Assembly (NCBI GenBank): GCA_963801165.1
Contig: CAWDDT010000006.1
Coordinates: 512,001 to 576,000, forward strand
Length of the DNA: 64,000 nucleotides
Source: an uncultured bacterium
Lineage (GTDB): Bacteria > Actinomycetota > Acidimicrobiia > Spongiisociales > UBA5794
Reading direction: 5' to 3'
The notes beneath the pieces are model-generated. The model was not told where the DNA came from and searched no databases. It saw nothing but the letters and a program-made list of their open reading frames with translations. Of this stretch, positions 2,626 to 10,463 are shown piece after piece. Made by a program: the position numbers and the translations under genes. Positions within the stretch are counted from its first letter, which is position 1. The number at the start of each line of letters is the position of its first letter.

Positions 2626-3560
2626 GACTTCACCTTCTCGACAACACGCATGAGCGCAGACCGGGCACGCGGATTGGCCGCGATCTCCGCCTGGCTGGGA
2701 CGCATGGGGTGGCGGACGGGAAGCTGTAGCTCTGCCGTCTTTCCGCAGATGCATACGGGGAAGTCGGGCGGGCATTCGCAACCGGTGCTGCCGGCGGCGA
2801 AGCGTCTCTTGACCATACGGTCCTCGAGAGAGTGGTAGGCGATCACCAGCACCCTCCCACCGGGACGCACCCAACGGATCGCTGCCTCAAGACCAAGCTC
2901 GAGCGCTCCCAGTTCATCGTTGACCGCGATCCTGATGGCCTGGAAAGTCCGTCGAGCGGGATGCTTGCGACGACGGAGCGCGGCAGGGACCGCGGCTGCG
3001 ACCACGCCGGCAAGCTGTTCGGTGTCCGTGATTGGGCGTGCGGCGACGATGGCTCGAGCGATCCGCCCAGCCATGCGCTCCTCGCCGTACCTTCTGAGGA
3101 CGTCAGCGAGGTCATCCACAGGCCACTCGTTGACGATTGTGTATGCCCCAAGTTCGGCGTCGCGGTCCATCCGCATATCGATTGGCCCGCGACGCCGATA
3201 AGAGAAACCTCGCTCGGCCTCGTCGAACTGATGGGAGGAGACTCCGAGGTCGAGTAGAAATCCATCGATGCAGGAACCGTCATCGGCGCCCCCCTTCTGA
3301 CAGATCTCGGACGCTATCGCGTCGAGAGATGCGAAATTGGCCCGGATCAGCCGTACGTCGCCCTCGACCCGGTCCCGTGCTATCGCGTCGGGATCCCGGT
3401 CGATCGCCACGACCCTTATCCCGGGGAACGCCTCCAGTAACGCTCGAGTGTGTCCCCCGCCGCCGTAGGTGGCGTCGACCACCAGGCGCGGTGAAACCGG
3501 TCGCAGCATCTCCACGACCTCGGTCACCATCACGGGTACGTGATATGGGTTCTGATCCAT
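2622..3560 (-). CDS. rsmH: 16S rRNA m4C1402 methyltransferase RsmH (MraW)
   Basis: HVPVM, DATYGGGGH, DLGVSS, RTFQAIRIAVNDEL, HSLEDR, NPRARSA motifs. Confidence 0.97.
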   Translation of the reverse strand: MDQNPYHVPVMVTEVVEMLRPVSPRLVVDATYGGGGHTRALLEAFPGIRVVAIDRDPDAIARDRVEGDVRLIRANFASLDAIASEICQKGGADDGSCIDGFLLDLGVSSHQFDEAERGFSYRRRGPIDMRMDRDAELGAYTIVNEWPVDDLADVLRRYGEERMAGRIARAIVAARPITDTEQLAGVVAAAVPAALRRRKHPARRTFQAIRIAVNDELGALELGLEAAIRWVRPGGRVLVIAYHSLEDRMVKRRFAAGSTGCECPPDFPVCICGKTAELQLPVRHPMRPSQAEIAANPRARSALMRVVEKVKS

Positions 3561-3641
3561 GGTCAGCCCCCCGGAGCGCTGGCGCCAAAGTGGAAGCGGG
3601 CGGAGTAAGGGGCCTCCCGATTGGCATCCGGGGGACTGGCC
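3561..3641 (-). ncRNA. mraW RNA motif-like cis-regulatory hairpin
   Basis: Minus strand GGCCAGUCCCCCGGA pairs with UCCGGGGGGCUGACC; inner UGCCAA/UUGGCG; loop has CUUCCAC; directly 5' of rsmH ATG. Confidence 0.6.
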
Positions 3642-6167: not shown

Positions 6168-7688
6168 ATGAATCACGAGAGGCATATCGACGCTGTCCAA
6201 CGGCGTCGTGCGAGCCGGCCACGCGTTTCGCTTTGCTGGATTCTGGCAATCGCATTTTTGCTCGGTAGCTGCTCGGCCGACGAACCTGCGCCGCAATGGG
6301 GAACCAACGCCGATACCTTCTTCGCTGAATGGGACGCTGCCTGGTCTGGCGCTGATCCCTACGACATAGTGCGCTTCTATGACACCGACGTCGTCGTCGG
6401 GCTCATCCAGGACTACCGCTCATTGTCTCTTGGCGCCGGGTTCAGCGACACGGCCGTAACCGGAGACGGACGCGCCTGGCTGACGGATTGGATCGACAAA
6501 CAGATCGAGCCGCGGCAACGAGCCCTGGACCATGTGTACGTCGGTCGGTCCGAAGCGCTGGCGTTGGTCACGATCGATGAAGATGAGACGGCGGTCGCAG
6601 TGTCGATGACCGTCACCGACACATCGATCACTGCATCCACGGACATGAGATGGCGGGACGCTCATCTGCCCGGCGGCGCTCCCGACAATCGTCTCCAGTG
6701 GTTGGACGATTTGGCTACGACCTACGCGGCGGCCTGGACCACCGGTGACGAGAAACTGCGGGCGCTCTACCAGCCCGGGGCCACGATCGAGGCATTCTCT
6801 CAACCAGAGGTGGATTTGGATACCGCCCTGTCCATGGCCGACCTGAGGTATGGAGACGCTGTGGTCAGCGATGTGGCCACGGGCGAGCGCGCCGGTCCTG
6901 CACTCTTCATCGGACCCGACTCGGCCGCAATCGGTCTCGAAGCCAAGCGAGACGACGGTTGCCTGGTGCAGTCGGTGGTGCTTTTCACGCTCCAGGATCA
7001 GAAGATCGTGACGGAGAAGCGGCTACTCACCCCCGACTCGGTACGGCGGTGCTTCGGCAACGATGCACCCGCCCGGGGTTGGTGGAACGCCCTGGCTGTC
7101 CCCGTACCCGTCGATGAACAGGTCAGCGGATCCGTAACCGCAAACGACGGAACTGAGATCACGATCGTCAACGGCACGCCCGAGCTCGAGCGGCTTCTCG
7201 AGTGGGGTCTGGGTCGCTTCGAGGCAACCGGTCTTCCGGCACCACGGCTGGCGTCGGCGACCTTTGCGCCGGTTCCCGCGTGTGCATCCGCCCCGGGCCT
7301 GGTGACCGAGACAGTCAAGGACAAGGCAGATCTGATCCTGTGCACCGACGCCTACGAGGCCTGCCTGCCAGACCGAGCATCGTGCACGGACTTTCAACCC
7401 AGCGTCCGGCTCGGCATGCTCCACGAACTCGGCCATGCCTGGCTGCTCGAGAATCTCAGCGCAAAGACTGAATCAGAGTTCCTGGCCCTCAATGACCTGT
7501 CGTCGTGGGGAGACCCCGCCCAGCCCTGGCACCGGCGTGGCGCCGAGCAGGCTGCCGAGACCATGGCTTGGGGCCTGCTCGAACAGCCGATCAGCCTGTT
7601 CCGCATCGGCAATCCGCCCTGTGACACGATTGCGGCCGGGTTCGAGTTGCTGACGGGAACCGCATCGCTGCACGGATGCGAAGGCTGA
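6168..7688 (+). CDS. Putative lipoprotein with SnoaL/NTF2-like segments and C-terminal HExxH metallopeptidase-like domain
   Basis: LLGSC lipobox; two 'AW....D....Y' SnoaL-like stretches; MLHELGHAW followed by AEQAAE; true start uncertain. Confidence 0.55.
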   Translation: MNHERHIDAVQRRRASRPRVSLCWILAIAFLLGSCSADEPAPQWGTNADTFFAEWDAAWSGADPYDIVRFYDTDVVVGLIQDYRSLSLGAGFSDTAVTGDGRAWLTDWIDKQIEPRQRALDHVYVGRSEALALVTIDEDETAVAVSMTVTDTSITASTDMRWRDAHLPGGAPDNRLQWLDDLATTYAAAWTTGDEKLRALYQPGATIEAFSQPEVDLDTALSMADLRYGDAVVSDVATGERAGPALFIGPDSAAIGLEAKRDDGCLVQSVVLFTLQDQKIVTEKRLLTPDSVRRCFGNDAPARGWWNALAVPVPVDEQVSGSVTANDGTEITIVNGTPELERLLEWGLGRFEATGLPAPRLASATFAPVPACASAPGLVTETVKDKADLILCTDAYEACLPDRASCTDFQPSVRLGMLHELGHAWLLENLSAKTESEFLALNDLSSWGDPAQPWHRRGAEQAAETMAWGLLEQPISLFRIGNPPCDTIAAGFELLTGTASLHGCEG

Positions 7689-7767: not shown

Positions 7768-8669
7768 CTATTGGTTTCCAGTCAGTTGTTTTGCTCGTTG
7801 TTGGGCATGGTAGGTGTCCTCGAATTCGGTCGGGGGGACGTCGTTGAGGTAGCTGTGGATCCGCTGGGTGTTATACCAATGGATCCAGCCCAAGGTAGCG
7901 AGTTCGACGTCTTCGATGCTGCGCCACGGGCCATGATCCGGTCCGTAGATCAGCTCGGCTTTGTAGAGACTGTTGACGGACTCGGCGAGTGCGTTGTCAT
8001 ACGAATCACCGACCGTCCCGATCGATGGCACCGCTCCGATCTCGTCAAGGCGTTCCCGTAGCGGATACTGGTGAATTGGCTGCCGGCATCGGAATGAGCA
8101 ACGAGCCCTTCAAGACGGGTGCCTCGGGCGAAACGGGCCATCTCTAAAGCGTCGAGGACCATCTGGGTTCTCATATTCGAAGCGACCCGCCACCCGACGA
8201 TGTGGCGGGAGAACGCATCGATGATGAAACACACATACCCAACACCTTGCCAGGTCGGGACATAGGTCAGGTCCGTCACCCACAGCCGGTTCGGCCGGTC
8301 GGCTGTGAAGTCCCGCTCCACCAGATCCGGGGATCTCTCAGCAGCAGGATCAGATTTGGTGGTGCGAACCCGGCGACGACGTGACACACCCTGAATATCG
8401 AGGGCTTTCATGAGACGTCCGACCTGGTCACGGCCAATCGTATGGCCGTCACGTAACGCAGCCTTCCACAGTTTGCGGACCCCATACACCGAGTAGTTCG
8501 CCTGAAACAGCGCCAACAAGACCGGCATCATCACCGCATCCCTGATCGCACGAGCCGACGGTATCCGAGACTTGTTCTCGTAATACGTTGACGGGGCCAC
8601 CTGCAACGTCGCACAGATAGGCTCGACCCCAAAGTCGTCACGATTCTCGTCAATGAACTGCACCATCAC
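7768..8669 (-). pseudogene. IS3 transposase OrfB (rve/DDE), single-base frameshift near 8055
   Basis: WVTDLTY, HSDAGSQF, SYDNALAESVN; ORFs 7950-8669 and 7768-8031 join if one G is restored in a G run (YGERLDEIG); may be a sequencing error. Confidence 0.88.
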
Positions 8670-8696
8670 CTCTGTGGGCGGTCGAGCTAATGGCAG

Positions 8697-8880
8697 CAGT
8701 GAGCCGGCCTTTTGGGGCAGGATTCATCCGGCGGCCATCGGGTCAGCACTAGGTCGAGTGGCACTTTGAGTACTTGGCGGAGATCGTGCGCCCGGTGGCT
8801 GTCGAGAGACGTGGATGGCTGGTGGGATGACGTGCCATAGAGCACTGGGCCATTAGCGAGCCGCATCGTCTCTTGCGCCA
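8697..8880 (+). ncRNA. IS110 bridge RNA (5' hairpin, target-binding loop, donor-binding loop)
   Basis: Guides GGTCGAG (8752-58), GGCGGAG (8776-82), GGTGGGATG (8821-29), GCCATTAG (8849-56) inside two stem/internal-loop modules; RNA ends approximate. Confidence 0.85.
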
Positions 8881-8903
8881 ACTTAACCGAACGGAGGAAG
8901 CCT

Positions 8904-10122
8904 ATGCGTTCAGTGTTCGTCGGTCACGATTGGGCCGAAGACCATCACGACATCCACATCGAGAACAGTGAAGGTGAGCGGCTTCATGCTTGCCGCCTCG
9001 ACGACGGGCTCGAAGGCGTCCGACGTCTGCATTCAGTACTCGCAGAACTCGCCGATGACCCGTCGCAGGTCGTGATTGCCACCGAGACCGACCGTGGGTT
9101 GTTCATCACCGCCATGATCGCCGCCGGCTATCAGGTGATCGCGATCAACCCCATGTCGACGGCCCGTTACCGACGAACGCCGGTCAACATCCGGTGCCAA
9201 GTCCGACCGAGGCGATGCGCAGACCCTCGCCGAGGTCGCACGCCTCGACAGCCACAACCACCGGCTCCTAGAACCCGACAGCGACCTTGCTGACGCGATC
9301 AAACACACCGCCAGGGCGCACCAGAACCTGATCTGGACTCGCCAACGCCAGCTCAACCAGCTCCGCTCGGTCCTACGCGAGTTTTTCCCCGCCGCGCTGG
9401 CGACCTTCCCCGAACTGGCACACAGCGACTGCCTCGCCACCCTTGCGGTCGCTCCTTCACCAGCAGCAGTCCACAGCCTGAGCACCGTCCGGATCGCAGC
9501 CGCGCTCCGCCGCGGGGGAACCAAACGCGGCGCCGATGCCAAAGCCGCGACGATCCGGCAAAACCTGCGAGCCGATCAGCTCCGAGCCCCCAAACAGCTC
9601 GAGGCAGCAATGAGCTCCCATGTCACCGCCCTTGTCGCTGTCGCCACCGAACTCTCCCAACAGATCAACCGGCTAGAAACCGAACTCACCGAACTACTCG
9701 ACCAGCACCCCCACGCCAAGATCCTCCAATCGATACCCGGGCTCGGCACCAAACTCGCCGCCCGGCTCCTCGGTGAGTTCGGAGACGCCCCCGACCGCTT
9801 CACCGACGCCCGCAGCCGCAAGAACTATGCCGGCACCTCACCCATCACCAAAGCATCAGGTCGCAGCCACATCGTCATCGCCCGTCGCATCCGCAACACC
9901 CGCCTCGCCGACGCCTGCCACCAATGGGCCTTCGCCAGCCTCTCCCACAGCCCCGGCGCCCGCACGTTCTATGACCAACGCCGAAACCGAGGAGACAGCC
10001 ACAACCGCGCACTAAGAGCCCTATCAAACCGGCTCGTCGGCATCGCTCACGGCTGCCTCACACACCAAACCCCCTACGACGAACACACCGCCTGGGGACA
10101 CCGCTACAACCTCGTCACTTGA
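8904..10122 (+). pseudogene. IS110 DEDD recombinase (about 405 aa), +1 frameshift near 9173
   Basis: GGAGG RBS; VGHDWAEDHHD, IATET, (after frameshift) SGAKSDRGDA, SIPGLG, AGTSPITKASG, ALRALSNRL. Confidence 0.9.
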
Positions 10123-10144
10123 CTTTTCTCCGGGTGGGATGTCT
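10119..10144 (+). promoter_or_regulatory. -35 half of a circle-junction promoter in the IS110 right end
   Basis: TTGACT (10119-24), 17 nt, then T-CT plus left-end AAT gives TCTAAT after circularisation. Confidence 0.8.
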
Positions 10145-10463
10145 CCGCCGCAAAGAAAGCCGAAGCCCGCTTCAAAATCTCGTTCGCTCGACGTAACTCC
10201 CGGTTCTCCTGCTCAAGCTTCTTCATCTTGACTCGCTCCGCAGAAGTGATGCCCGCAACACCCCCAGCATCAATCTCAGCTTGGGCCACCCAACGGCGCA
10301 CCGACTCAGAGCCGTAACCCAACTGGTCAGCGACCCGAACCACCGTCCCCTGCGACTCCCCAAGTTCCTCACGAAGCTGGAAAACAAGACGAACCGCCCC
10401 ATCCTTCTCCTCCTTCGTATACCGCCGTATGGTCGGCTTCCCCGGTGATAACTCTCTCGACAT
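10145..10463 (-). pseudogene. IS3 transposase OrfA (HTH), split near its C-terminus by IS110 (rest at 8666-8688)
   Basis: RRYTKEEKDGAVRLV, ESVRRWV, ENRELRRANEILKRASAFFAAE|LDRPQR*. Confidence 0.9.

Follow-up and report, generated by a model that had tools for sequence, protein, structure and literature searches.

We find that an IS110-family insertion sequence in the window (the whole stretch of DNA that was analysed, 64,000 nucleotides long) carries promoter-like half sites at its two opposite ends, and we think it likely that they belong to one split promoter that is put together across the circle junction of the excised element. The window is part of contig C6 and has a G+C content of 64.5%; the genome it belongs to comprises 4.55 Mb in 13 contigs. 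Judging by its sequence, the region 8689-10142 is a bridge-RNA-guided element of the IS110 family (IS110 group) that is inserted at a CT dinucleotide, the core. The element is previously undescribed, and the same is true of the actinobacterial clade in which it falls.

According to the mechanism that we propose, the short right end (RE) carries a -35 hexamer, TTGACT, laid over the stop codon of the recombinase gene, and the -10 hexamer (T-CT-AAT) would arise only when RE is joined to the left end (LE) via the CT core, that is, in the circle that excision yields or in a head-to-tail dimer. From this joined promoter (Pjunc), transcription would start at about 8697-8699, where the base of the 5' stem-loop of the bridge RNA lies, and the transcript would run through the bridge RNA into the recombinase, both of which would be raised once a circle exists. 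In this account, we infer that the junction is active as a promoter, where transcription starts and that a circle is formed. The features that are needed in the following are listed here with their positions in the window.

8592-8705, resuming from 10145, minus strand: ALIL frameshift element of the host IS3 (Rfam, 48.5 bits, gathering score 50)
From 8669 downward, minus strand: IS3 gene with the rve domain (Pfam and open reading frame list)
8680-8688, plus strand: left target half GGTCGAG and left copy of the CT core (8687-8688), in host IS3 DNA, the IS3 itself being on the minus strand
8689-10142, plus strand: IS110-family element, 1454 bp, or 1456 bp if one CT core is counted
8689-8903, plus strand: LE, 215 nt, non-coding, encodes the bridge RNA (alignment, fold and guide matches)
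8689-8691, plus strand: AAT, the first three bases of the LE (which begins AATGGC), 3' half of the proposed -10
8697-8699, plus strand: predicted transcription start of the junction promoter, 6-8 nt past the -10
About 8699-8727, plus strand: 5' stem-loop of the bridge RNA (predicted fold)
8752-8758 and 8776-8782, plus strand: LTG and RTG of the target-binding loop (guide matches)
8821-8829 and 8849-8856, plus strand: LDG and RDG of the donor-binding loop (guide matches)
8904-10122, plus strand: IS110-family recombinase (DEDD RuvC-like domain and Transposase_20), in two frames, with an extra base at 9173
10571-10104, minus strand: IS3 gene with the HTH_Tnp_1 domain (Pfam and open reading frame list)
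10119-10124, plus strand: proposed -35 TTGACT, overlapping the TGA stop codon at 10120-10122
10125-10141, plus strand: spacer of 17 nt, whose last 9 nt (10133-10141, GGTGGGATG) are the left donor half
10142-10144, plus strand: T and the right copy of the CT core, 5' half of the proposed -10 (from the sequence)
10143-10149, plus strand: core and right target half, CTCCGCC; the right CT copy is 10143-10144, and IS3 DNA is found again from 10145

The ends of the element are observed in three independent ways. First, contig C9 of the same genome contains a paralogue of the insertion site that is empty: the two flanks match it at 85% and 84% identity, the matches share an overlap of exactly 2 bp, which is CT, and there is one CT at the empty site. 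Second, a 1063-nt contig of the soil metagenome run X8 passes directly from 8686 to 10143, so that 1456 bases are missing from it and two letters are shared at the joint; this is the same IS3 sequence without the insertion, again with one CT. Third, the guides of the bridge RNA fit both target and donor, as described below. All three agree with the boundaries and the CT core that the initial annotation of this DNA had put forward. On reading, the left and right ends are unlike each other, and the CT core flanks the element on both sides. A comparison with the contigs of its own genome finds the element as a single copy.

As to run X8, its records 23-26, which cover 8450-10380, comprise the empty IS3 site as well as pieces of the IS110 element with 0 differences. 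Since no contig connects the empty site and these pieces, the element is probably located elsewhere in that community. Salt-marsh runs are among those in which the element occurs. At position 10185, the window has C where all four runs (X1, X2, X3 and X8) have G.

The insertion sits within an IS3-family element on the minus strand, in the ALIL frameshift pseudoknot. The Rfam match to ALIL lacks its first stem, because the IS110 element splits that stem. Read on the plus strand, the target is GGCGG-TCGAG-CT-CCGCC, with CT at the loop edge of the first ALIL stem-loop. The left half, GGTCGAG, is common to the loci L004, L005, L006 and L015, and the right half is common to L004-L006. In addition, the runs X1 and X3 have loose ends at 8677, where another, different IS3-like flank carries the same target site. 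The sub-clade to which the window element belongs thus appears to home into IS3 frameshift stem-loops, one insertion sequence targeting another. In L006, the left core is TT instead of CT and the right core is CT; the LTG of L006 also has TT at this place. As for the host, its integrase-core gene (minus strand, 7768-8669) consists of two overlapping frames, 8669-7950 (239 aa) and 8031-7768 (87 aa), so that the IS3 looks degenerate, the IS110 insertion aside.

Next, we consider the LE and the RNA that it encodes. The predicted layout of the LE is that of IS621, namely a 5' stem-loop and two further stem-loops with internal loops. The observed guide matches are complete: LTG is identical to the left target half (7/7), RTG is the reverse complement of the core and the right target half, CTCCGCC (7/7), LDG equals the tip of the right end at 10133-10141 (9/9), and RDG is the reverse complement of CT plus the first six bases of the LE (8/8). 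The guides also go with their own sites among the relatives. For the 42 representatives with full flanks, LTG matches the element's own left flank at 4.71 of 7 positions, compared with 2.14 for the flanks of other elements, and RTG at 4.02 of 5, compared with 1.92. RDG covaries with the start of the LE, for example CCATGAG with CTCATGG in L013 and L052, and GCCATT with AATGGC in the clade of the window.

The fold is likewise supported by the alignment. RNAalifold, run on 49 non-redundant LEs, predicts a consensus structure with 30 base pairs, and compensatory changes occur in 18 of these; in the 5' stem (alignment columns 11-17 with 54-60) 77.8% of the cells are paired, compared with 22-54% when the partner is slid. 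The first base of this stem is 8699 in the window and, in the relatives, position 11 of the LE. The LE of the window alone folds with a minimum free energy of -83.3 kcal/mol (z -2.55). No Rfam family was matched by the LE at E-values up to 1.

Downstream of the LE, a GGAGGA ribosome-binding site lies just ahead of the ATG at 8904. The first frame, which starts from this ATG, matches positions 1-87 of PF01548 (Pfam, E 1.6e-12), while the second frame, open from 9139 to 10122, matches positions 87-155 of the same family (E 4.5e-16) and PF02371 (E 1.9e-14). The base at 9173 is absent from all three metagenome assemblies that cover it (X1, X2 and X3; X8 does not extend over it) and also from the nearest relative, L004. 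Among the 66 elements with both ends called, the recombinase frame is open over at least 380 codons in 63, the exceptions being the window element, L015 and L033. The extra base may be a real mutation or an assembly error; unless it is the latter, the 1-nt insertion means that this copy may be unable to excise alone.

Several further observations concern recombinase genes of this type. An Rfam match to Ms_AS-4, an sRNA of Actinobacteria, is found on the minus strand at 9737-9813 (46.7 bits, gathering score 50, E 1.5e-05), where the gene codes on the opposite strand for Transposase_20; antisense sRNAs are known for ISPpu9 and ISPpu10 (PMC12288879). Besides ALIL and Ms_AS-4, the Rfam search gave only a match to an lncRNA, which was put down to chance. 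Three more IS110-type recombinase genes with open frames are found at C7:42042-42497, C13:72686-73141 and C9:432878-433318 (L086-L088), and they are unrelated to the window element at the DNA level. The elements on C7 and C13, whose core and ends could not be placed, are 84% alike over 1475 nt and have TTGACA near their right end. Some 200 nt separate the gene on C9 from the IS3 paralogue with the empty site.

We now turn to the promoter itself. The initial annotation had described TTGACT at 10119-10124 over the recombinase stop codon, and its coordinates are correct to the base. Joining the ends via CT does indeed give TTGACT-17 nt-TCTAAT facing the bridge RNA, and the hexamers of the integrated state are exactly those it had named, TCTCCG on the right (10142-10147) and GCTAAT on the left (8686-8691). 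The joined sequence has the layout by which we recognised a Pjunc, with the -35 in RE, the -10 completed by LE, 16-18 nt between the two, and both facing LE. Transcription usually starts 6-8 nt beyond the -10 hexamer, and the 5' stem-loop starts 7-8 nt beyond it. A start at 8697-8699 would omit the first bases of the LE, which are complementary to the donor guide.

The weak point of the joined sequence is its -10 hexamer. In promoters of the sigma-70 type, including the TANNNT boxes of actinobacteria, A at position 2 is the best-conserved base of the -10. From the key bases of a canonical -10, T at position 6 is present here and A at position 2 is absent. Position 2 is C in the window and in all 49 representatives described below, since the core occupies positions 2 and 3 of the hexamer. 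In the integrated sequence from 8400 to 10400 we found no promoter-like site with a scan rule that demands A at position 2; note that TCTAAT, having C there, would itself fail this rule.

Matches to a single hexamer are common in DNA generally, and one could ask whether the joined boxes are a chance resemblance without any function. We searched for sites with at least 5/6 matches to TTGACA, a gap of 17-18 nt and at least 5/6 matches to TATAAT, and there was not one on either strand of the 64-kb window, i.e. in 128 kb. Furthermore, the motif is invariant over 80 relatives at 55-86% protein identity, so that the conservation data contradict a chance origin and we give it hardly any credence.

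These relatives come from a scan of a genome collection, in which 234 of 298 pattern matches were confirmed and 80 loci with relatives were obtained. The left ends of the elements were located by an anchored search; for 15 of the 81 elements, which have a truncated contig or a divergent LE, no left end was called, and they do not enter the junction counts. In summary, we had 66 junctions, of which 55 were distinct, and these were reduced to 49 non-redundant representatives below 90% ungapped identity.

In all 80 relatives scanned, TTGAC is found 17-18 nt ahead of T-CT. In 78 of them it lies over the stop codon, at 17 nt from T-CT in 17 cases and at 18 nt in 61. In the remaining two (L076 and L077) the right end measures about 150 nt; their stop codon is located some 130 nt upstream of the box, and TTGACC-18 nt-TCT is found at the tip. 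Four elements (L043, L047, L051 and L075) have a tandem TTGAC box, 5 nt apart, where the copy proximal to the core retains the 18-nt spacing; in L075 the copy at the stop codon has decayed to TTAAC, with TAA as the stop. Since the long right ends and the duplicated boxes keep the spacing to the core, the box follows the core and not the reading frame. The last codon varies, but it ends in T in 80/80 relatives.

The same picture is seen in the 49 representatives. All of them have TTGAC, in the form of TTGACA (36), TTGACG (8), TTGACT (3) or TTGACC (2), and the spacer is 18 nt long in 36 and 17 nt in 13. The joined -10 is TCTAAT in 46, TCTCAT in two and ACCAAT in one, which is L015 with its damaged right tip; the LE begins with AAT in 47/49. 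Among the 43 representatives with enough flank, the joined hexamer reaches 5/6 of TATAAT in 40. At the left junction of the integrated element, the best upstream -35 has at most 3/6 matches in all 43. The observed conservation of the split boxes supports the idea of the initial annotation that the promoter would be complete only in the joined ends.

However, the stretch that runs from TGGGATG across the core to AATGGG serves the bridge RNA as donor site too. The -10 bases thus double as donor site, their conservation is expected regardless, and alone it is no argument for a -10. Potentially, the conserved TTGAC could serve otherwise, for example as a subterminal binding site of the recombinase or of some other protein. 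For want of A at position 2, the joined hexamers would then be no promoter, and only read-through or an internal promoter that escaped recognition would supply bridge RNA and recombinase. The C at position 2 and the coincidence of the -10 bases with the conserved donor core would fit with this. So would two known elements: ISPpu9 is described as managing without a junction promoter (PMC12288879), and for integrated IS621 the expression by read-through is reported to be enough for excision (PMC13626964). On the other hand, the box agrees exactly with the -35 consensus over its first five bases, it is found in 80/80 relatives at the optimal distance of 17-18 nt from the sole -10-like hexamer, and the sequence that separates it from the donor site is variable (the 5' part of the spacer has only 0.3-0.7 bits per position in the 49 representatives). 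Moreover, where the accounts of IS621 treat donor recognition, they put it near the core and make no mention of a protein site 20-25 bp away (PMC11208160, PMC13626964). We consider a purpose of TTGAC other than transcription unlikely, and the joined junction is probably a working promoter, to which both the -35 box and its spacing point.

We also looked for the circle junction in the available sequences. The contigs of the runs X1, X2, X3 and X8 contain no back-joint between RE and LE; note that contigs drop rare forms. A junction pattern, composed of the -35, a gap of 10-13 nt and the joined end motifs, matched two metagenome contigs, L084 at 6446-6478 and L085 at 3536-3568, both on the minus strand. 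It had no matches in the viral contigs and none in the other fetched loci. For L084 and L085, none of the five bridge-RNA motifs is found at the expected place downstream, so we rejected them as circle junctions and take them for integrated copies instead of RE-LE joints; a local alignment of their downstream sequence with three LEs gives a score of at most 26.

In these two copies the right flank begins with AATGG, and therefore a complete TTGAC-spacer-TCTAAT faces outward into the host DNA. One might ask whether this is the general role of the right end, that is, whether its -35 is an outward half-promoter that pairs with the flank when integrated and activates the neighbouring host DNA. Apart from the complete outward arrangement in L084 and L085, the integrated right hexamer reaches 4/6 matches in 10 of the 43 representatives. 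However, only three of the 43 have T at position 6, the hexamer of the window (TCTCCG) has 2/6 matches, and the box of the window faces the antisense strand of the disrupted IS3 gene. An outward role is therefore very unlikely in our opinion, and we return to the promoter that would be formed by the joined ends.

Since the -10 bases and the donor site are the same, there is maybe a further link between transcription and recombination. We suggest, as a tentative idea that we think rather unlikely to hold, that in this clade the -10 hexamer is the recombination site itself (in T-CT-AAT, the T ends the left donor half, CT is the core and AAT opens the right donor half, and the donor loop of the bridge RNA reads all of these), and that the complex of recombinase and bridge RNA competes there with RNA polymerase. 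If this was true, the circle promoter would be silenced by the build-up of its own product and lost when the element inserts, and the invariant C at position 2 would be the price of the overlap, offset by a perfect -35.

Regardless of this idea, the ends, the core, the guides and the likely transcription unit of the IS110 element are now fixed. The split-promoter layout persists throughout a broad branch of actinobacteria, in which the proteins are as little as 55% identical, and the natural variants (that is, long right ends and duplicated boxes) separate the -35 from coding constraints. This is useful when bridge RNAs are annotated and when natural bridge recombinase systems are selected in hosts with high G+C. 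The known picture of IS110 regulation is not changed by our finding.

How does the element compare with known systems? The initial annotation had appealed to the circle-junction promoter logic of IS110 elements, and there is precedent for it in IS621 and ISPpu10. IS621 of E. coli and the window element are alike in many respects: a recombinase with DEDD and Tnp domains, a CT core, a long LE with the bridge RNA and its target- and donor-binding loops, and a sigma-70-like promoter across the core of the joined RE-LE, with the -35 in RE (PMC11208160, PMC13626964). In IS621, the promoter rebuilt across the RE-LE core is reported to drive the bridge RNA, and removal of the -35 abolishes recombination (PMC11208160). 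This promoter was confirmed by RNA-seq of circular versus linear constructs, and according to the same account read-through gives the first excision, after which the junction promoter boosts expression (PMC13626964). The window element differs from IS621 in its actinobacterial host, in its target, which is an IS3 frameshift stem-loop, and in an RE of only 20 nt past the stop codon, with the -35 over that stop. Its -10 probably differs as well, as it holds the core (T-CT-AAT), hence the C at position 2.

ISPpu10 of Pseudomonas putida is similar in that a hybrid promoter over the CT core drives the bridge RNA and the target is a stem-loop (REP). Its Pjunc, with the -35 from RE and the -10 from LE, is described as strong in a lacZ fusion, whereas the native promoter is weak, and the circle was shown by outward PCR (PMC12288879). 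Thus, activity and circle have been measured for ISPpu10, whereas for the window element both are predicted from the sequence. Furthermore, the -10 of ISPpu10 is described as lying within LE, whereas one half of the window's -10 is the RE tip with the core (PMC12288879). Junction promoters are not restricted to these two elements: Pjunc promoters formed on circularisation are also on record for ISEc11 and IS492 of the IS1111 / IS110 family (cited in PMC13626964 and PMC12288879). On the other hand, ISPpu9 of Pseudomonas putida is an IS110-family element with circular intermediates as well, but its circle junction is reported to give no promoter, and a native promoter is used instead (PMC12288879). 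A junction promoter is therefore not a family-wide rule of IS110. Among the literature matches listed, none dealt by title or abstract with junction promoters in actinobacterial IS110 elements, which is a weak negative. In summary, the mechanism is already described for IS621 and ISPpu10, and we would have here the same mechanism in an actinobacterial clade; the local features that stand out are the -35 over the stop codon of a minimal RE of 20 nt and a -10 that contains the core.
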